A DNA stretch of 64,000 bases from an uncultured Verrucomicrobiae bacterium (GTDB lineage Bacteria; Verrucomicrobiota; Verrucomicrobiia; Limisphaerales; UBA11358), in NCBI GenBank assembly GCA_963827205.1, contig CAWHAH010000016.1, positions 43,663 to 107,662 of the forward strand, written 5' to 3'. The notes beneath the pieces were generated by a model that was not told the DNA's origin, ran no database searches, and saw only the letters and a program-made list of their open reading frames with translations. Positions 5,831-62,057 of the stretch are shown piece by piece. Both the position numbers and the translations under genes were made by a program. The first letter of the stretch is position 1. Each line of letters begins with the position of its first letter.

Positions 5831-7039
5831 TCAGAGCAGTGCCGGCAGCAGGGCGTAAAACTCCGTCGCACGAACCAGGTCGGCCAGCGGCACTTGGTCA
5901 AGCACACCGTGAGCGGTGGTTTCGTCCCCGGCCGCAAAGATGATGGTCGGGATGTTGGCCTTGCCCATCCAATAAATTCCGTTGGTCGAAAAGTTGAGCT
6001 TGCCGGCCTTCGGCGTTCCGCCCCAAAGCATCTGCGCCGCCTTCAGGCCGGCCTGCACCAAAGGATGGTCTTCGCCAAGTGCCCAGGCGGGGAAGTATTT
6101 TTCCACCGGAAAGACAAAGCCGGTGTAGCTCGGCGTGTCGTAGTGAAGCATTTCCACCCGGATGTGGTTGCGCTGTTTCTCCGGGACCAGCGCTTCTACC
6201 TGCGCGATGGCCTGCTCCTTCGTCTCGCCGAAGGTCAACCGGCGGTCAATGTAGATCGTGCATTCGTCCGGGACGGCGTTGATCGAAGGGGTCTGGCACT
6301 CGATCTTGCTCACCGTGATTCGGCCTTGGCCCAAGAAGGCATCGGTATGAAGACGGTCATTGAGTTGCTCGATGCCGGCGATAATTGGCAGCATTTTGTA
6401 AATCGCATTGTCGCCGAGTTGATTTGAAGCGGCATGAATCGAGCGCCCCTTGGCGGTCACTTTCAGTTCCACCCGCCCCTTGTGGCCGCGATATACGTTC
6501 ATCTCGGTCGGTTCGCCGACAACGACATAGTCTGGCCGGAGGCCCTCGCGCTCGACCAACGCCTGACAGGCCAGCCCATCGCAGTCCTCTTCCATGTTGC
6601 CGAAGTAATACACCGTGAAGCCGTCCAGCAGACCGAGTTCCTTGGCCAAGGCGATACCGTAAAGCATGCCCGGCGTTGATTGCTTCTCATCCCCGGCCCC
6701 GCGAGCAAATAGAATCCCGTTCTCGACCTTGCCCTGGAACGGGTCCCAGCCCCAAGCTGACCGGTCGCCGACATCCACCGTGTCTATGTGCGAATCATAC
6801 AGCAAAATTCTCTTTCCTCGCCCCATCCGGCCGAGGACGTTGCCCATGCGATCAAAGTGAACGTCCTCGAAGCCCAGCCGTGCCATTTCTTCCATGATGC
6901 GTTTGCCAACCTCGCCAATCCGGCCCATCACACTGGGGATCGCGCAAATTTCCCGCATGAAGCGGATGATCGAGTCCCGCTGCCTGGCGACGCGAGCTTG
7001 AATGCGCGGGACAATTTCGGTTTTGAGGTTTGTTTTCAT
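5831..7039 (-). CDS. M20-family metallohydrolase, YgeY-like
   Basis: Motifs seen: SHIDTVDVGD, ARGAGDEKQS and the overall M20 pattern. Full-length ORF. Confidence 0.8.
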   Translation of the reverse strand: MKTNLKTEIVPRIQARVARQRDSIIRFMREICAIPSVMGRIGEVGKRIMEEMARLGFEDVHFDRMGNVLGRMGRGKRILLYDSHIDTVDVGDRSAWGWDPFQGKVENGILFARGAGDEKQSTPGMLYGIALAKELGLLDGFTVYYFGNMEEDCDGLACQALVEREGLRPDYVVVGEPTEMNVYRGHKGRVELKVTAKGRSIHAASNQLGDNAIYKMLPIIAGIEQLNDRLHTDAFLGQGRITVSKIECQTPSINAVPDECTIYIDRRLTFGETKEQAIAQVEALVPEKQRNHIRVEMLHYDTPSYTGFVFPVEKYFPAWALGEDHPLVQAGLKAAQMLWGGTPKAGKLNFSTNGIYWMGKANIPTIIFAAGDETTAHGVLDQVPLADLVRATEFYALLPALL

Positions 7040-7288
7040 GTTCGTTCAGTAAAGAATGCAAAATCCCGAATGTGAAACCGGCAGGGCGCGGAGCAAGGGA
7101 AAGCCGATGCCCATTCACAAGCGTGAGCCGAGTGTATGGAGCGAGCTTAGGATCGTCAAGTGCGGCACGATTGACTGGCTGACAGGCGCGACAATGATGC
7201 GCAGTTTTGGCAGTGGACTTTCCCGTGTCGAAAGGGAAAAATGCCGGAAACTTTTAGAACCGAGCAAAAACCTACCGAAGGCGAGACT

Positions 7289-8164
7289 ATGGCACGCATT
7301 ATACGAAGCGGACTCATTCAGGCGACGAATCCCGAACCCGGCACTTCGCCGGTCAAGAAGATAAAGCAGGCGATGATTGAGAAGCATGTGAAGCTGATCA
7401 ACCAGGCGGCAAGAAAGGGCGTGCAGGTGTTGTGCTTGCAGGAAATCTTCTACGGCCCCTACTTCTGCTGCGAGCAGGAGATCAAATGGTATGAGGCAGC
7501 GGAGCGCGTGCCCAATGGCCCGACCACGCAACTAATGCAGCGGCTGGCGAAGAAGCACGGCATAGTGATGGTCGTTCCCGTTTATGAAGAGGAAGGCACT
7601 GGAACTTACTACAACACGGCTGCGGTCATTGACGCGGACGGCAAATTCCTCGGCAAGTATCGGAAGAATCACATCCCGCATTGCAAGCCCGGCTTCTGGG
7701 AAAAATTCTATTTCAAGCCCGGCAACCTGGGCTATCCCGTCTTTGAAACCGCCGTCGGAAAAGTGGGCGTCTATATCTGCTACGACCGGCATTTCCCCGA
7801 AGGCTGGCGTTTGCTCGGGCTCAATGGCGCAGAAATCGTGTTCAACCCCAGCGCGACGGTGGCGGGTTTGAGCGAGTATTTGTGGAAGTTGGAGCAGCCT
7901 GCCGCTGCGGTGGCCAACGTATTTTATGTGGGCGCGATCAACCGCGTGGGCTGCGAAAAACCCTGGCGCTTCGGCGAGTTCTATGGACAAAGTTACTTCT
8001 GCAACCCGCGCGGGCAGTTGCTGGCGGAAGGGCCGCGAGACAAGGACGCGGTGATTGCGGCGGACTTGGATCTCGAAATGATCCGTGAGGTTCGCAACGT
8101 CTGGCAGTTCTACCGCGACCGACGCCCCGAAACCTACGGAGAGATGAGCCAGTTATTGCCGTGA
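7289..8164 (+). CDS. Carbon-nitrogen hydrolase (nitrilase superfamily), beta-ureidopropionase-like
   Basis: Motifs seen: CLQEIF, RKNHIP, VYICYDRHFPE (catalytic Cys context) and NPSATV. Resembles animal-type beta-alanine synthase. Confidence 0.8.
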   Translation: MARIIRSGLIQATNPEPGTSPVKKIKQAMIEKHVKLINQAARKGVQVLCLQEIFYGPYFCCEQEIKWYEAAERVPNGPTTQLMQRLAKKHGIVMVVPVYEEEGTGTYYNTAAVIDADGKFLGKYRKNHIPHCKPGFWEKFYFKPGNLGYPVFETAVGKVGVYICYDRHFPEGWRLLGLNGAEIVFNPSATVAGLSEYLWKLEQPAAAVANVFYVGAINRVGCEKPWRFGEFYGQSYFCNPRGQLLAEGPRDKDAVIAADLDLEMIREVRNVWQFYRDRRPETYGEMSQLLP

Positions 8165-55199: not shown

Positions 55200-55895
55200 A
55201 TGGCACTGGCGGACATCAGACGGGAATACTCGCTCGGCGGCCTGAAACGCGCGGAACTGGACGCGAATCCAGTTGCGCAATTCAAGCAATGGTTCGCGCA
55301 GGCGTCGGGCGGCAGCCGCTGGCGGAAAGTCGGCATCGCCCTCTACAAACTCTGGCACGCCATCCTCGGCCATGTGCCGATTGACGTGAACGCGATGGTG
55401 CTGGCAACGGTGGACCAGGCTGGACGCCCTTCCACCCGCGCCGTGTTGCTCAAAGGCGTGGATGAGCGCGGCTTCGTTTTTTACACGAATTACGACAGCC
55501 GCAAGGGGCTTGAACTGGCCGAAAATCCCAATGCGGCCCTGACATTTTACTGGCCGGATTTGGAACGGCAGATCTGCGTCGCTGGCACGGCGAGCAGAAT
55601 TTCCAGCGAAGAAACCGAGGCGTATTTCAAAAGCCGTCCGCGGGGCAGCCGTCTGGCGACGTGGGCGTCGAACCAGCGCGACGTGGTGGCCGACCGCGCG
55701 GCGCTTGATGCGAAGTGGAACGAGATGGCGAGGAGATTTCCCGGCGACGTGCCATTGCCGCCGGATTGGGGCGGTTACGTGTTGAAACCGGAACGCATCG
55801 AATTCTGGCAGGGGCGGCCAAACCGGTTGCACGACCGTTTTTGTTATACGCGGCAACCGGACTATTCGTGGAAACTGGAACGGCTCGCGCCGTAG
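55200..55895 (+). CDS. pdxH: Pyridoxamine 5'-phosphate oxidase
   Basis: Motifs seen: RREY, LATVD..GRPS.R.VLLKG, FYTNY.SRKG, IEFWQGRPNRLHDR and a terminal RLAP. Confidence 0.9.
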   Translation: MALADIRREYSLGGLKRAELDANPVAQFKQWFAQASGGSRWRKVGIALYKLWHAILGHVPIDVNAMVLATVDQAGRPSTRAVLLKGVDERGFVFYTNYDSRKGLELAENPNAALTFYWPDLERQICVAGTASRISSEETEAYFKSRPRGSRLATWASNQRDVVADRAALDAKWNEMARRFPGDVPLPPDWGGYVLKPERIEFWQGRPNRLHDRFCYTRQPDYSWKLERLAP

Positions 55896-55977
55896 CGGCG
55901 TCTCGGCAAAGCGCCGGAAATCCGGGAAAATAATGCGGCTTTCTCCCGAAGCCACCACGCCTGTTTCACGGAGGCGC

Positions 55978-56814
55978 CTAAAATTTGTAGGCCAAGCCGC
56001 TGATCAGTTTCACATCGTTGTCCTTGCGGCCGGGCGCGGGGTCATTGGCAAAGTTGTCCTGCACCACCGTCCGCAGGCTGAGTCGCTTGGTGAGCGCGGC
56101 TTCGGCGCCCACTTCGGCATTGACGAGAAAATTGTCGGGCTGGTCCGCCTGCGGCAGGAATTCCACATTCTGCCAGAAGCGCGTGTGTTCGTCCGTTTTG
56201 TGTTCGAAGCGTTCGGCCAGGCGCAGCGTGGGATAAGTGTGGTATTCGTCGTCCAGTTTTTCATACAAGACGGCCGGGCCGAATTCGCCCGCCAGCGACG
56301 TTTGCTTGTTCTTGACGAAGTAATAGCCGGCGCCGGGGCTGAACGTGAACCGATAAGTCACGTCCGCGATGCCGTCATGCAACGCGTCGGCGCGCGCGTA
56401 CCCGTACCAGCGTTCGCCAAACAGACGGTTGTATTGGCCAAAACCATGCAAGGTTTCGTTGTTTTCCACCGCATTGTTTTCGCCATAAGAACCTTCGAGG
56501 CCCAGGGTCCATTCGTTGGTCGGGTTGTTCCGATGGGTCCTGAAACTGCCGGAGGCCAGCACGCTTTCGCTGTTGCCGCTGGTCAACGTCAGGCCAAAGG
56601 CCACAGTGCTTTCCCACGCCGGCTTGTTCGTGGGGATTACGGTGCCCGCGGTGGCAGGCGCGGCGTTGGTCGCCGCTGCCAAAAGCGCCAGGGCGCCGTT
56701 GCTGTCGCTGGCCGGTTTGTTGGTTGACACCGTGATGGTTTGATTGGTGTCGCCAGCGCGACCGCACACGGTCAAAACGGCCAGAACAAACAAGATCAGA
56801 ATATATTTTTTCAT
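55978..56814 (-). CDS. DUF481 (YdiY-like) outer-membrane beta-barrel protein
   Basis: Signal peptide, alternating beta-strand pattern, and a C-terminal ...SGLAYKF. Confidence 0.65.
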   Translation of the reverse strand: MKKYILILFVLAVLTVCGRAGDTNQTITVSTNKPASDSNGALALLAAATNAAPATAGTVIPTNKPAWESTVAFGLTLTSGNSESVLASGSFRTHRNNPTNEWTLGLEGSYGENNAVENNETLHGFGQYNRLFGERWYGYARADALHDGIADVTYRFTFSPGAGYYFVKNKQTSLAGEFGPAVLYEKLDDEYHTYPTLRLAERFEHKTDEHTRFWQNVEFLPQADQPDNFLVNAEVGAEAALTKRLSLRTVVQDNFANDPAPGRKDNDVKLISGLAYKF

Positions 56815-56954
56815 TTTTCTTTCACGCCGACAAATTGAATTCCGACCGGGGAAACCGATGCAGCGGAAATCCTGACAGCAAACAGCCCGGAAACAACTCG
56901 AGCGCGGCCATTCTAACCCAAACCATCAAGCGGGCAAGTAAACGTTCTTGAAAA

Positions 56955-57086
56955 TTATTTCTCCGGCTCGCCTTTGTCGGTGGTGTCTTCCTTGTCTCCG
57001 CCAATGACCGAGGCCACGGCCTGAAGTTGGTCGCCGGCTTCCAACTCAATCGGCTTCACGCCCCGCGCATTGCGGACGGTTATTTC
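56955..57086 (-). pseudogene. Orphan copy of the gyrA 3' end (43 codons plus stop)
   Basis: Translates as EITVRNARGVKPIELEAGDQLQAVASVIGGDKEDTTDKGEPEK-stop, against the genuine GyrA end ...TGRNTQGVKLIELESGDKLQAIAPVIGEDKEDAAGEAEPAK-stop. Similarity also covers ~15 nt past the stop. Confidence 0.7.
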
Positions 57087-58417
57087 TTTGGGTTATCGGA
57101 TGGCTGCCCTTTGCTCTCCCGGCTGGAAACGAAGATAGTATCGGCCCCCACCATTTCTTCCAGCGTGATAAAATCCATGCCTGACGTAGCCGGTCGGATT
57201 TTGGGTTCAGGCGGTTCGGCTTGGACCGCCTTGGGCGGGGAAGCGCCTGGCGGGGGTGGCGGAGGCGGAATGGGGGTTGATTTCTTCGCCGCCAGATTGT
57301 TTGTGACCAGAATGGTTCCATCATCATCGGTCAAATAACTTTCCTCCGTCCGCACGCGGGTGGCTTCCGCGAGCAACGATTCCCACTGGCGTTGCACGGT
57401 GCGTTTGGGAGGCGCCCGGAAGGGGATCAGGCGGAATTCGCCAGCGGTCAGGGACAGCAATTGATGAAAAGCCTTTTCTCCGACCAGCTTTCCGGTCGAG
57501 GCGTGAATGATGGCGCCGCCTTCAATGTAAATCTCGCCGGCGATCTGGTGATTCCGGATTTCAAGGACCAGGGAGTTGCCGCCCAGGCATTCCAGTTGGA
57601 TGACATCGAGCAAGCCTGTCTCGCTCAAGCTGCTGATAAAATCGTTGCTGTCCGACCACCGCAGGACGTTGGTCAACATGTTGAAAACGAGCTTCCACCC
57701 ATCCTCGTCGCCTGGTTTTAAGAGGAAAAGCTCCGCTCCATTGGCCAGACAGGTGGCCCGCCGGCTTTCGTCGCTTTGTGCGGTCAGGATGACTTTTTTG
57801 ATGTTGGGATATTGCTGATGAATAATGCCCAGCAACTGGACACCGTCCAGCAGCGGCATGCCGATGTCCAGTACGACCAGATGAATCAGCTTTTGTTGCA
57901 GGATGGATAGCGCCATGTCTGCGGATGAGGCCGTGTAGATTTCCCAGTCTTTGTCCACTTGGGCGGCAGACAGATCGGTGATCATCTCGAGAAAGGCCAG
58001 GCTGTCATCCACGAAGAGCACGCGATAGGCTTTCCGACTGTCTGTGGATTCAGATTTTTGTGCCGGGGCGGGGGATGAAACACCAGCCGATGGCGGCGCG
58101 GCTAACTGGGGTGCCGCCGCCGGGGCGGGTTCGGAAATCTCCAAGCGCAATTCCACCAGACCCAGGCGCATCGTTTGCCCGGGCTGCAAGACCGCTTCGG
58201 AAATCGCGTTCCCGCCGATGACCGTGCCATTGGTTGAGCGCAAATCGCGAACGACCAGTTCATTGCCGCGCAACATCACCTCGCAGTGCTGGTTGGAAAT
58301 CGACTTTTCAACGATTTGAAACGCATTCTTTTCGCCGCGCCCAATCGTGACCCAGCGCCCGCCCAATTCATGCGACAAGCCAGCCAATCCATCACTGATG
58401 ACTACAAGCCTCGACAT
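57080..58417 (-). CDS. FHA domain, response-regulator receiver and DUF4388 (PatA-like) signalling protein
   Basis: N-terminal FHA (GRGEKNAFQI...ISNQHCEV...DLRSTNGT), REC (VLFVDDS...VVLDIGMP) and C-terminal LLDVIQLECLGG (DUF4388). Confidence 0.8.
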   Translation of the reverse strand: MSRLVVISDGLAGLSHELGGRWVTIGRGEKNAFQIVEKSISNQHCEVMLRGNELVVRDLRSTNGTVIGGNAISEAVLQPGQTMRLGLVELRLEISEPAPAAAPQLAAPPSAGVSSPAPAQKSESTDSRKAYRVLFVDDSLAFLEMITDLSAAQVDKDWEIYTASSADMALSILQQKLIHLVVLDIGMPLLDGVQLLGIIHQQYPNIKKVILTAQSDESRRATCLANGAELFLLKPGDEDGWKLVFNMLTNVLRWSDSNDFISSLSETGLLDVIQLECLGGNSLVLEIRNHQIAGEIYIEGGAIIHASTGKLVGEKAFHQLLSLTAGEFRLIPFRAPPKRTVQRQWESLLAEATRVRTEESYLTDDDGTILVTNNLAAKKSTPIPPPPPPPGASPPKAVQAEPPEPKIRPATSGMDFITLEEMVGADTIFVSSRESKGQPSDNPKK

Positions 58418-58638
58418 GCAAATCTCCGAGATTCTCCGACAGCGTTATTGCTGTGCGTTCCCCATCAAACCAAAAGTTGCTCTCAACCAAACGGTTATAA
58501 AAGTTATTTCCGATAATGCAACCTGCTATTGTAAAACCGGCACCAGAACTTTTATGCCCCAGCGGCGGCAACACGTAAGCAGTGTCCATGCCGCCGGCGG
58601 TCGGAATACCGGGCTGGGAGCGGCGGAACGTTTGAGAA

Positions 58639-61281
58639 TTATTTTGCCGGCTCGGCTTCGCCGGCAGCATCTTCCTTATCCTCGCCGATGACCGGCGCGA
58701 TGGCCTGAAGTTTGTCGCCGGATTCCAATTCAATCAGTTTCACGCCCTGCGTGTTGCGGCCGGTTTCGCGGATGTCCTTCACGGATGTGCGCACCATCTG
58801 GCCTTTGACGGTGATGAGCATGATTTCGTCTGCGTCGCGTACGGTCAGCGCGCCCACTACGCCGCCGGTCTTTTCGGTGGTTTTCATCGTGATGATGCCC
58901 TTGCCGCCGCGGGATTGGACGCGGTATTCCTCGAAGTCCGTCCGTTTGCCGATGCCGTTTTCGCCGGCGACCAGCAGTTTCGCGTCCGGCACGACGATCG
59001 CCAGCGCGACCACTTCGTCGCCTTTCGACAAGTTAATACCGCGCACGCCCGTGGCGGGCCGGCCCATCGGACGGGCATCCTCCTCGTTGAAGCGGATGCT
59101 CATGCCGTCGCGGGTGATGAGGACGACTTCGTTCTGGCCGGTCGTCAGCTTCACTTCGATCAAAAGGTCGCCCGGATCAATGCCAATGGCGATGATGCCG
59201 CCCTTGCGAACGTTGGCGAAATCAGCCAACGCGGTCTTCTTAACTGTGCCTTGTTTGGTCGCGAAGAAGACAAAGCCCGGTTGTTCCCACGTCACGTCTT
59301 CCTTGTTCGCGTTGGTTTTGGACAACACGCGAATCAGCGCGGCGATGGTCTCACCCGCCTTCAATTCGAGCAGATTGGCAATGCTGCGGCCCTTGGCGGC
59401 GCGGCCCATGTCGGGAATTTCATGCACGCGCTCGACATAGACGCGGCCGGTGTTCGTGAAAAACATCAAATAATCGTGCGTGCTGGCGGTGAAGAGGTGC
59501 TCGATGAAATCCTTGTCCTCGTCAGTTGCACCTTCCCTGGTCGTCATGCCGATGACGCCCTTGCCGCCGCGGCGTTGAGCGCGATAGCTGGAGATGTTTG
59601 TGCGTTTGATGAGGCCGTTGTGCGTGAGCGTGATGATGACCCCTTCGTTGGCGATAAGGTCTTCGATGTTGATTTCGCCTTCGTCAGGCACGAGGTCGGT
59701 CAGGCGCGGCGTGGCGTATTTTTCCTTGATGGCTTTCAGTTCGGTTTTGATGATGGCCAGCACGCGCGCTTCCTTGGCCAGGATGTCCATCAAATCCTTG
59801 ATGCGCGCGAGCAGTTCCTTGTATTCGGTTTCGACCTTGTCAATTTCCAGGCCGGTCAACTGGTAGAGGCGCAATTCCAGAATCGCGTCCACCTGCCGTT
59901 CGGTCAGCGCGTAGCGGCCCTTGGTCAGGCGCTCCTCGTTGCGAATCAAAATGCCCCAGCGCTCAACCTGCTTTTGCGTCCACTCGAACGCCAGCAGCTT
60001 GACCCGCGCTTCCTCGCGCGTCTTGCTGCCGCGGATGATTTTGATGAATTCGTCGAGATTGGCCAGCGCGCAGAGATAGCCTTCCAGAATTTCCGCGCGT
60101 TCCTCGGCCTTCTTCAACTGGAACCGCGTGCGGCGCAGCACGACTTCGCGCCGGTGCTCGATGTAGCAATTGATGAGTTCCTTCAGCCCGAGCGTCTTGG
60201 GCCGGCCATGATCAATGGCCAGCATGTTGACCGCAAAACTCGTTTCCAGCGCCGTCTGCTTGTACAAATTGTTGATGACAACCTTGGCGATGGCGTCGCG
60301 TTTGAGTTCGACGACGACCCGCGTATTTTCATCCGATTCGTCGCGGATGGCGGTAATGTCGGTGAAGCCCTGGACCTTCTCGTTCACCAGTTCGGCGACG
60401 CGCTCGACGAGCACCGCGCGATTGACGTTGTAGGGGATTTCCGTGATGACGATTTGTTCCTTGCCGCCCTTGTGCTGTTCCACGCCCACCTTGCCCCGGA
60501 CCTTGACGCTGCCGTGGTCGGTGGTGAAATATTCCTTGATGACTTCCAGTCCGCACACCATGCAGCCGGTCGGGAAATCCGGGCCTTTGACGAATTTCAT
60601 CAGCCCCTTGACCGAGATATTCGGGTCGTCAATCTGCGCGCAGATGCCGTCAATGATTTCACCGAGATTGTGCGGCGGAATGTTCGTGGCCATGCCGACG
60701 GCGATGCCGGTGCCGCCATTGACGAGCAGATTGGGAAACGCGGCCGGGAAAACGGTCGGCTCGGTGCGGGTCTCGTCGTAATTGGGGACGAAATCCACCG
60801 TGTCCTGGTCCATGTCCTCCATCAGTGCGGCGCCGAGGTGTGTCATGCGCGCCTCGGTATAACGCATGGCAGCGGGCGGATCGCCTTCCACGGAGCCAAA
60901 ATTGCCCTGGCCGTCCACGAGCCGTTCGCGCATGGCCCACGGCTGGGCCATGTGCACGAGCGTCGGATAAATCACCGCCTCGCCGTGCGGATGATAGTTG
61001 CCGCTGGTGTCGCCGCAAATCTTGGCGCACTTGCGATGCTGGCGGTTCGGAAACAGCGAGAGATCGTGCATCGCCAGCAGGATGCGCCGTTGCGAAGGTT
61101 TGAGGCCGTCGCGCGCGTCGGGCAGGGCGCGCGAAATGATCACGGACATCGAGTAATCAAGAAAGGAGTTCTTGATTTCCTCGGCCACGTTGACCTTGGC
61201 AATTTTTTCACCCGAAGCGAACAGCGGCGTGTTGCTCACCGGCAAATCGTTTGAATCTTTGGGTTTTGTTTCGTCGGGCAT
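58639..61281 (-). CDS. gyrA: DNA gyrase subunit A
   Basis: Full-length conservation including AMRYTE (catalytic Tyr) and the C-terminal beta-pinwheel repeats. Confidence 0.95.
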   Translation of the reverse strand: MPDETKPKDSNDLPVSNTPLFASGEKIAKVNVAEEIKNSFLDYSMSVIISRALPDARDGLKPSQRRILLAMHDLSLFPNRQHRKCAKICGDTSGNYHPHGEAVIYPTLVHMAQPWAMRERLVDGQGNFGSVEGDPPAAMRYTEARMTHLGAALMEDMDQDTVDFVPNYDETRTEPTVFPAAFPNLLVNGGTGIAVGMATNIPPHNLGEIIDGICAQIDDPNISVKGLMKFVKGPDFPTGCMVCGLEVIKEYFTTDHGSVKVRGKVGVEQHKGGKEQIVITEIPYNVNRAVLVERVAELVNEKVQGFTDITAIRDESDENTRVVVELKRDAIAKVVINNLYKQTALETSFAVNMLAIDHGRPKTLGLKELINCYIEHRREVVLRRTRFQLKKAEERAEILEGYLCALANLDEFIKIIRGSKTREEARVKLLAFEWTQKQVERWGILIRNEERLTKGRYALTERQVDAILELRLYQLTGLEIDKVETEYKELLARIKDLMDILAKEARVLAIIKTELKAIKEKYATPRLTDLVPDEGEINIEDLIANEGVIITLTHNGLIKRTNISSYRAQRRGGKGVIGMTTREGATDEDKDFIEHLFTASTHDYLMFFTNTGRVYVERVHEIPDMGRAAKGRSIANLLELKAGETIAALIRVLSKTNANKEDVTWEQPGFVFFATKQGTVKKTALADFANVRKGGIIAIGIDPGDLLIEVKLTTGQNEVVLITRDGMSIRFNEEDARPMGRPATGVRGINLSKGDEVVALAIVVPDAKLLVAGENGIGKRTDFEEYRVQSRGGKGIITMKTTEKTGGVVGALTVRDADEIMLITVKGQMVRTSVKDIRETGRNTQGVKLIELESGDKLQAIAPVIGEDKEDAAGEAEPAK

Positions 61282-61287
61282 AAAAAA

Positions 61288-61737
61288 TTATTCAGCTGTG
61301 GCAATGTCCTCGATTTCTTTTGGCGTCAACGCAATGCCCAATTGTTTGCAGGCGGCGCGGATGCGTTTGTCCGTGGCTGCCATCGTGCCGCTGCGATGCC
61401 AATCGCAAGTCGCCACGTGCAGGGCGTCGAGTGTCCGCAACGGAATGTGCGGATGGCACGCCAGTTGAATCGCCTGGGCGCGGTCAAGCACCGTGCGTTC
61501 GATCGGCAACAACAGAATTGATTCATTTTCGAGCATCGAAAAAAAAATTTCCGCGCCGCGGAGGCGTTCCCGCGGCACGATTTCACGGTTGCGTTCTTTG
61601 AAAAGCAACGCGCCGCAGACTTCCACCACGGACAGTTCCGACGATTCGAAACTTTGCCCTGACAGATTTTCCTCGAACCACTCGCTGTCGGCTTCGCGCA
61701 CGAGCAGTTTGACGATGATGGCCGAGTCCAGATACAT
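61288..61737 (-). CDS. vapC: PIN-domain toxin (VapC-like)
   Basis: MYLDSAIIVKLL (first Asp), SELSVVE, DALHVAT and ATDKR motifs. The stop lies 6 nt before the gyrA ATG. Confidence 0.75.
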   Translation of the reverse strand: MYLDSAIIVKLLVREADSEWFEENLSGQSFESSELSVVEVCGALLFKERNREIVPRERLRGAEIFFSMLENESILLLPIERTVLDRAQAIQLACHPHIPLRTLDALHVATCDWHRSGTMAATDKRIRAACKQLGIALTPKEIEDIATAE

Positions 61738-62057
61738 CACCACTCGCCTCGGGTCCAATTCACGGCTTCATCCGCTGACCCTCCATGAATCGGCTGCTTC
61801 ATCAGGTAATCGCCCATGCCCTGAAAAACTTTTCGCGGTTTGGTTTCTTCCACCCGGATCAATTTCGCCTTGGGCTTGCCGTCGCTGGTGATGGTGATTT
61901 CCTGTCCGCCCGCCACCAAATCCAACAACGCTGACAAATGCGCCTTGGCTGCCCTGATACTGACAACAGATCCAACCCCCGGCATCGCCGTGACTTCGCG
62001 AAGTACCGTCGGCTCCGATTTGAGCGGCGGATATTTTTTGGTCGTATTCGCTTTCAT
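61737..62057 (-). CDS. Phd/YefM- or VapB-type antitoxin
   Basis: VSIRAAKAHLSALLDLV motif. The stop overlaps the vapC start (TGATG). An alternative start at 61985 would give 82 aa. Confidence 0.6.
   Translation of the reverse strand: MKANTTKKYPPLKSEPTVLREVTAMPGVGSVVSIRAAKAHLSALLDLVAGGQEITITSDGKPKAKLIRVEETKPRKVFQGMGDYLMKQPIHGGSADEAVNWTRGEW

Follow-up and report, generated by a model that had tools for sequence, protein, structure and literature searches.

A second gyrA terminus at a rearrangement junction in the gyrA-pdxH interval of uncultured Limisphaerales

In a 64,000-nucleotide (nt) stretch of DNA from an uncultured Verrucomicrobiae bacterium of the Limisphaerales (assembly GCA_963827205.1, contig CAWHAH010000016.1, positions 43,663 to 107,662; hereafter the window), the 3' end of gyrA is present twice. 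The genuine terminus is followed on the same strand by a gene for an FHA/receiver/DUF4388 protein (hereafter the FHA gene), beyond which lie a diverged second copy of the gyrA terminus, a gene for a DUF481 outer-membrane protein and the convergent gene pdxH. The stretch 56955-57080 is a gyrA pseudogene fragment. As to its origin, we give about an even chance to the reading that this relic marks the junction of an old local tandem duplication which, with reciprocal loss, swapped DUF481 and FHA. The placing of a second block of gyrA end, spacer and DUF481 after FHA by local duplication, with loss of the original DUF481, is the best-supported account of the locus. An earlier note on the same DNA had taken the repeat for the att-like (attachment-site-like) ends of an integrated mobile cassette: the rearrangement junction stands, the gyrA end, spacer and FHA being extra DNA relative to genomes with the order gyrA-DUF481-pdxH, whereas the integration does not. 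In Limisphaerales relatives, the FHA gene has long had its place between gyrA and pdxH.

The repeated gyrA terminus and its decay

The duplication is real. A repeat search returned a single long direct repeat in the region, 134 nt in length and ungapped, with 80% identity and a spacing of 1684 nt (coordinates in Table 1), and blastn aligned the two copies at 79.4% identity over 141 nt (E-values 3e-29 to 5e-31), the longest exact run shared being 11 nt. Within the window, tblastn of the GyrA C-terminus also matched the second copy (E-value 2e-9). This copy retains the gyrA frame (TVRNARGVKPIELEAGDQLQAVASVIGGDKEDTTDKGEPEK), its stop codon and the start of the 3' flank (TAATTTTCAAGAACG compared with TAATTCTCAAACG), the flank common to both copies amounting to about 7-15 nt. 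Chance similarity is ruled out by the E-value of about 1e-29, by the shared frame and stop and by the presence of orthologous copies in other genomes. The end of gyrA at 58639 and the FHA gene of 445 amino acids (aa) downstream were both correctly placed by the earlier note, but its repeat start at 57100 was not: homology begins at the FHA stop codon, at about 57081. The FHA C-terminus, ending in PKK, is conserved where pdxH comes after FHA, and is thus FHA's own sequence.

Constraint was assessed through the distribution of differences over codon positions. The coding part of the window relic differs from its own gyrA end at 26 sites, divided 8/7/11 among codon positions 1/2/3. For comparison, the window gyrA end differs from orthologous gyrA ends at 2-6, 1-2 and 9-16 sites, respectively. 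The third-position-heavy differences of the in-gene copy indicate purifying selection, while the flat pattern indicates that the relic is unconstrained. Orthologous relics are in various states: the frame is open in the window and, apart from the end stop, in L094 (loci are cited by number), while L090 has an internal stop, L104 a premature one and L092 frameshifts, and L095 and L099 have lost around half of the relic. To judge from these sequences, the relic is a non-functional, slowly decaying pseudogene fragment without coding constraint.

The ancestry of the relic was examined in an alignment of 13 gyrA ends with the three full-length relics, those of the window, L090 and L094. The three relics group together, inside the set of gyrA ends from the relic-carrying clade. 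Alignment columns in which the gyrA of this clade differs from that of L007/L009 place the relics with the clade by 6:1, 4:2 and 8:0; those in which it differs from that of L096 do so by 10:1, 8:3 and 10:0. The relics of the window and L104 have derived changes in common (S to A, K to Q and AA to TT). Over the same stretch, identities are 64-75% between relics, 70-78% between relic and gyrA (82% in L104) and 82-90% between gyrA ends, values that would fit a single duplication, of the gyrA end of this very lineage, with neutral decay thereafter. A foreign donor was considered and rejected, none of the gyrA ends of 13 relatives being closer to the relic than the clade's own gyrA. The phylogeny that the earlier note had proposed for deciding which copy was native thus finds no foreign surrogate: both copies come from the clade's gyrA, and the downstream copies are one relic clade.

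Gene orders and junctions among relatives

Relatives were surveyed using the last 350 aa of GyrA as query, with one genome taken per species. Eighty loci were returned, most of them titled Limisphaerales, Verrucomicrobiia or Pedosphaera, with GyrA identity from 96% downwards (93-97% over these 350 aa in close relatives), and their gene content was determined by tblastn of the window's proteins. Further contexts resembling that of the window were retrieved through homologues of its DUF481 protein in a large protein collection and, for L104, through FHA homologues; a metagenome scan with the DUF481 protein gave two loci only, one of them ending on the decisive side. In most closer relatives pdxH forms the right-hand border of a variable interval, whatever intervenes after gyrA, and FHA orthologues of 60-82% aa identity occupy the same interval. 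An FHA protein of identical sequence is encoded on contigs of one metagenome-assembled genome (MAG), GCA_049589755.1, and on matching metagenome contigs.

The content of the interval varies. The order gyrA-DUF481-FHA-pdxH is found in L006, L008, L015 and L016; gyrA-DUF481-pdxH in L007, L009, L011, L096/97 and many more distant loci; gyrA-FHA-pdxH in L005 and L100-L103; and simply gyrA-pdxH in L010, L012 and L013. The order of the window, gyrA-FHA-relic-DUF481-pdxH, recurs in L087, L090/91, L092/93, L094, L095, L098/99 and L104. It is thus common to at least seven other lineages, although L087 is of the same species as the window. In the first six of these, taken in the order given, DUF481 is 98, 92, 80, 79, 74 and 71% identical in aa to that of the window, and the gap between FHA and DUF481 measures 250-277 nt. 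Sister groups of one clade therefore show a swap of adjacent blocks, gyrA-DUF481-FHA-pdxH against gyrA-FHA-DUF481-pdxH. When each of 94 loci was searched against its own gyrA end, a second copy was found solely in genomes with FHA followed by DUF481.

The DNA between the genes is informative as to where each block came from. The distance from relic to DUF481 in the window is 140 nt, compared with 137-139 nt from gyrA to DUF481 in L007, L008 and L009, and positions 57074..55978, comprising relic, spacer and DUF481, form one alignment block with the gyrA end, spacer and DUF481 of these three loci. In all genomes of swapped order, the stretch from the FHA stop to the DUF481 start aligns with the gyrA end and gyrA-DUF481 spacer of the other types. 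A promoter scan located a promoter-like site in the spacer (TTGCCC-16-TAGAAT, 56937..56910); the surrounding block is conserved whatever the genome type. This end-to-end collinearity with a gyrA-DUF481 junction indicates that the relic belongs to the DUF481 unit, which has retained its own upstream region.

The spacer between gyrA and FHA is likewise composite. Its first 15 nt or so correspond to the ancestral gyrA 3' flank, followed by a possible relic of the DUF481 3' end and then by the ancestral DUF481-FHA spacer: window positions 58554..58465 align with L015 7892..7983, from a point 11 nt within the 3' end of DUF481 onwards, and a multiple alignment pairs aaagttcTGGtgccggttttacaa of the window with aagttcTAGtgccggtttcacaa of the DUF481-first genomes. 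The homology holds for the window and for all clade genomes in which FHA directly follows gyrA. Since a DUF481-FHA spacer lies upstream of FHA, DUF481 once preceded FHA in this lineage and that copy was deleted. The possible DUF481 remnant, 25 nt long at about 58607-58583, is similar to DUF481 positions -65..-41 (z scores up to 7.1 in sister genomes), which is weak evidence; it is closer to the clade's own DUF481 than to that of the DUF481-first genomes.

On the other side of FHA, two forms of junction are seen. In L092, L095 and L099, the FHA stop is followed by 35-70 nt that share homology with the FHA-pdxH junction of genomes in which pdxH comes after FHA (z scores 8-13, reached in 0/300 shuffles). 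This pdxH-end relic includes, on the other strand, the pdxH stop and last codons, and a shorter gyrA relic lies next to it. No pdxH-end relic was found in the window, L090 or L094 (z scores of about 0-1); here, and in L104, the gyrA-end relic stands directly against the FHA stop. Relic-free genomes carry the motif CCGG(C/T)CGC after the FHA stop, and the same motif is found in gyrA, exactly at the start of the repeat.

Several observations on the same stretches may be recorded here. The DUF481 leader (56815-56910) is conserved and has two versions of its sequence, the first seen in the window, L090, L094, L095, L096, L104 and L008, the second in L092, L099, L007 and L009, a distribution that matches neither gene-order type nor gene trees. 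A structured RNA or riboswitch in the leader was considered and rejected, there being no Rfam match and a consensus fold of just -2.7 kcal/mol. The last 35 nt of FHA show some likeness to gyrA positions -144..-115, immediately before the repeat: in L016 GTGAAGGGCATCCGC matches GTGAAGGACATCCGC (3/500 shuffles) and in L006 there is a 28-nt match (2/500 shuffles). As a recombination substrate this similarity was set aside, being borderline in these two loci and absent in six others, and it is either chance or the trace of an older event.

Other loci of the survey have peculiarities of their own. Two tandem DUF481 genes, 140 nt apart, follow gyrA and precede pdxH in L068 (1619-3179); no gyrA-end relic was detected there by self-search, and the pair may have arisen by a separate tandem duplication within this interval. 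In L024 (8428-9027) and L025 (8388-8924), a conserved open reading frame (ORF) of 178-199 aa lies 3' of FHA on the opposite (minus) strand, occupying the place held by DUF481 in the window's clade. An additional outer-membrane gene (OMP_b-brl / PagL) is present between DUF481 and pdxH in L094 alone (6843-7466). Several contigs with a Limisphaerales-type gyrA in the same gene setting also occur under the titles Akkermansia muciniphila, Bifidobacterium, Klebsiella, Sulfopaludibacter, Methylomirabilota, Acidoferrum or Bacteroidetes (L024, L025, L026, L027, L058, L064, L007, L013, L017 and L073), and are probably mis-binned or mislabelled MAG contigs. In L002, L087, L095 and L098, gyrA or FHA is broken into several ORFs by frameshifts, while short-read counterparts are intact (L099 compared with L098), so that long-read assembly errors are the likely cause. 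A 488-aa FHA call in L095 was accordingly rejected as a fusion and attributed to such a frameshift.

Origin of the arrangement

Under the duplication reading, the ancestor would have had the order gyrA-DUF481-FHA-pdxH, with pdxH convergent. In a tandem duplication, a segment would have been copied that began at least about 134 nt ahead of the gyrA stop, included DUF481 and FHA, and ended just within the pdxH 3' end. Loss of the upstream DUF481 copy and of the downstream FHA copy would then have given gyrA, FHA, the pdxH-end relic, the gyrA-end relic, the spacer with the DUF481 promoter, DUF481 and pdxH, in that order. In the sub-lineage of the window, the pdxH-end relic would later have been deleted, perhaps between the copy of CCGG(C/T)CGC after the FHA stop and that in the gyrA relic, a step that would put the gyrA relic directly against the FHA stop. 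The arrangement would have been inherited from there on, and shuffled by homologous recombination among related lineages. We infer the tandem, intrachromosomal nature of the duplication and the order of the losses.

The succession of FHA, pdxH-end relic and gyrA-end relic in L092, L095 and L099 is what duplication of a block from gyrA end to pdxH end predicts. Also on the side of tandem duplication are the relic's being of the clade's own gyrA type, its single origin and the weak, own-type DUF481 piece upstream of FHA.

Several results weigh against this reading. Among about 100 loci there is no intermediate with the relic and two DUF481 or two FHA genes. Between DUF481 and pdxH no relic of the lost FHA copy was found, with nothing there beyond the near-identical L090, and of the lost upstream DUF481 copy there is just a short relic of weak significance. 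The swapped-order DUF481 is nearer to that of gyrA-DUF481-pdxH genomes than to that of DUF481-first genomes, a grouping that fits re-acquisition as well as duplication. The two junction forms, with and without the pdxH-end relic, are at odds with the gene trees, so that extra deletions or recombination must be assumed, and in the trees of FHA and pdxH, genomes lacking DUF481 are intermingled with those of swapped order. Finally, the distant relatives L024 and L025 have FHA directly 3' of gyrA without a relic, which leaves the deep polarity of the gene order uncertain.

An alternative that commands a sizeable minority of our confidence is that DUF481 was lost first, leaving gyrA-FHA-pdxH, and a fragment comprising the gyrA 3' end, spacer, DUF481 and the 3' part of pdxH was then regained. 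The donor would be a sister cell or very close relative that had kept gyrA-DUF481-pdxH; one joint would be homologous, in pdxH, and the other illegitimate, at microhomology just after the FHA stop, the gyrA relic being the ragged end of the incoming fragment. The recipient order is frequent in the clade (L005, L100-L103), and its carriers are interleaved with relic-bearing genomes in bootstrapped trees (in the FHA tree, L005 with L095 at 100% and with L104 at 95%; in the pdxH tree, L094 with L103 at 91%), an interleaving that would, however, also result from repeated loss of the relic-DUF481 unit through recombination of the pdxH relic with pdxH. The window differs from L005 only by the extra 57071..55892, with CCGG(C/T)CGC microhomology on one side and, on the other, homology unbroken from the relic through DUF481, pdxH coming next. 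A joint inside the recipient's pdxH end would fit the pdxH-end relic after FHA in L092, L095 and L099. The grouping of swapped-order DUF481 with that of L096 (gyrA-DUF481-pdxH), the want of a doubled-gene intermediate and the clear recombination breakpoints in the region, seen between the window's genome and L090, all count for re-insertion. The mechanism it requires has been documented (PMC3240628), and displaced gene ends in type VI secretion system (T6SS) and Rhs loci have been explained by it (PMC5361080), but where its frequency has been measured it is rare (PMC5361080, PMC3240628). Against it, the relic matches the clade's own gyrA at the diagnostic sites and not that of the sampled gyrA-DUF481-pdxH genomes, and the derived changes common to relics argue for a single origin rather than repeated captures. 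A relic of own type means that any donor was of essentially the same lineage, and hence hard to tell from intrachromosomal duplication: the data do not separate tandem duplication from re-insertion.

Whichever of the two gave rise to the arrangement, lineages have evidently exchanged DNA since. The window's genome (L001 11338-11480) and L090 (5735-5875) are about 62% identical in the 5' half of the relic and about 95% in its last 49 nt, while FHA is 83% identical and the spacer and DUF481 about 95%. So sharp a change of similarity points to recent homologous exchange with a breakpoint inside the relic. L104, similarly, combines the FHA of one subgroup with the DUF481 of another.

Under the duplication reading, the remaining direct repeats could also account for DUF481-less (gyrA-FHA-pdxH) or FHA-less derivatives. 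We suggest, tentatively and with more doubt than belief, that they act as a recombination toggle giving such derivatives repeatedly, the gyrA end and its relic flanking FHA, and the pdxH relic and pdxH end flanking DUF481. Such a toggle, if real, would explain all four gene contents (both genes, either or neither) among close relatives, and the interval would on this view be an exceptionally clear bacterial case of gene order altered by tandem duplication with reciprocal loss.

The integration proposed in the earlier note, by which a mobile FHA-REC-DUF4388 cassette entered the gyrA 3' end site-specifically, supplied a surrogate terminus and displaced the native one, is very improbable. The architecture of gene, insert and diverged gene end with stop and flank is indeed that of icd-e14-icdC (PMC13626634), and the gyrA-DUF481 genomes L007, L009 and L096 resemble empty sites. 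Such genomes, sought in the note as a check, do exist, but FHA is resident elsewhere in the same interval: together with its own upstream spacer it is present after DUF481 in L006, L008, L015 and L016. The note was right that the single-gene segment lacks an integrase (FHA, Response_reg and DUF4388 are its only domains), and Pfam families of integrases, transposases and resolvases are absent from the 1.7-kb segment and from the called genes within 10 kb on both sides. The composition of the segment is like that of its surroundings, not foreign. There is no identical crossover core, the longest exact run being the 11 nt given above, a point that is weak alone, as a former core could have decayed. 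Both repeat copies descend from the clade's own gyrA, so that neither is a foreign surrogate, and the arrangement is old, being shared with at least seven other lineages in which the relic is decaying. A shared arrangement with both copies diverged, which the note itself had named as speaking against integration, is what the relatives show (a stop in L090, frameshifts in L092). The search for further FHA cassettes that it had proposed gave none, nor any FHA-gene paralogue, elsewhere within the window.

That the second copy is functional, whether as a C-terminal extension of FHA reached by -1 frameshifting at CCA AAG AAA TAA or as a regulatory RNA or terminator, is scarcely credible: the relic does lie in the -1 frame relative to the FHA stop, and that frame is open in the window and, apart from the end stop, in L094, but the orthologous relics are broken (L090, L104, L092) or half deleted (L095, L099), substitutions are flat across codon positions, the sequence contains no canonical slippery heptamer, and the relic has neither an Rfam match nor a terminator-like hairpin on the coding strand.

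Known systems compared and the layout of the locus

The phenomenon is already known in kind: it is an ordinary evolutionary scar at an unusually well documented locus, with little weight for biology at large. Gene-order change by tandem duplication and random loss is established for animal mitochondrial genomes (PMC5745709, PMC4223735). As there, adjacent blocks are swapped, a partial copy of a boundary remains at the junction and non-coding leftovers serve as spacers. Unlike there, the rearrangement is on a bacterial chromosome, no intermediate carrying both copies came to light, a relic can be detected, weakly, for just one of the two lost copies, and the pieces have been shuffled by homologous recombination between lineages.

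Homology-facilitated illegitimate recombination during natural transformation (PMC3240628) and the displacement of T6SS effector-immunity and Rhs C-terminal pieces (PMC5361080) offer a second comparison. Common to these and the present case are a fragment beside a conserved gene, one homologous anchor, one microhomology joint and an orphan gene end left behind. In T6SS and Rhs, however, the incoming piece replaces a variable toxin tip and so diversifies it, whereas here the end of an essential housekeeping gene is concerned, the apparent donor is the lineage itself and the copied gyrA end is, as far as can be told, not expressed.

The prophage e14 and the gene pair icd / icdC were reportedly treated by Hill et al. 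in 1989. In E. coli K-12, icd and icdC flank e14 (and phage 21) (PMC13626634). Here too an intact gene has its 3' end duplicated as a diverged pseudo-terminus beyond an insert. But e14 is a 15-kb element that has its own site-specific recombinase and excises, while the insert here is one resident signalling gene without a recombinase; the repeats here share no identical core, and the arrangement has become fixed throughout a clade. In its lost coding constraint, its stops and frameshifts in orthologues and a divergence that fits neutral decay, the relic is of the same category as ordinary pseudogene fragments from bacterial segmental duplication.

A short duplicated gene end can thus record a local rearrangement, as a dated scar, without being a mobile-element footprint. 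For genome scans the case carries a warning: where no recombinase accompanies a duplicated gene end, a duplication scar is a likelier source than an att site. The locus also provides a worked case of gene-order change in uncultured Limisphaerales (Verrucomicrobia), with several junction relics surviving. In annotation, 56955-57080 should be flagged as a gyrA pseudogene fragment, FHA-REC-DUF4388 as a resident chromosomal gene and DUF481 as retaining its own spacer with a promoter-like site.

On the minus strand of the window, the order is gyrB (to 62104), a Phd/PIN pair, gyrA, FHA and DUF481, with pdxH convergent (Table 1). Pfam matches in the 445-aa protein have E-values of 2.8e-14 (FHA), 4.5e-17 (Response_reg) and 4.9e-14 (DUF4388), and a terminator-like hairpin lies near the DUF481 gene at 55955..55935.

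Table 1. Features of the gyrA-pdxH interval in the window
Feature	Position	Strand	Basis
gyrA, intact, 880 aa	58639..61281	minus	ORF list; Pfam DNA_topoisoIV and six DNA_gyraseA_C blades
In-gene repeat copy: last 42 gyrA codons, stop and 7 nt of flank	58632..58765	minus	Repeat search
gyrA-FHA spacer, 221 nt	58418..58638	minus	Alignments with DUF481-first genomes
FHA / receiver / DUF4388 (PatA_N) response-regulator gene, 445 aa	57080..58417	minus	Pfam
gyrA 3'-end relic: 42 codon equivalents, stop (56955-56957) and 7 nt of flank	56948..57081	minus	107/134 identity
Ancestral gyrA-DUF481 spacer, now relic-DUF481 spacer	56815..56954	minus	Collinear with L007/L008/L009
DUF481 (YdiY-like) outer-membrane protein gene, 278 aa	55978..56814	minus	Pfam DUF481 1.8e-42
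pdxH (pyridoxamine 5'-phosphate oxidase)	55200..55895	plus, convergent	Pfam PNPOx_N and PNP_phzG_C

The pair between gyrB and gyrA (61288-62057, minus strand) encodes a Phd/YefM antitoxin and a PIN toxin. It is found in some relatives only (e.g. L006, L011, L014, L017 and L087) and is absent from L090, L096 and L100-L104, where the gap between gyrB and gyrA is of a few to about 60 nt; it thus represents a second presence/absence polymorphism adjoining gyrA.

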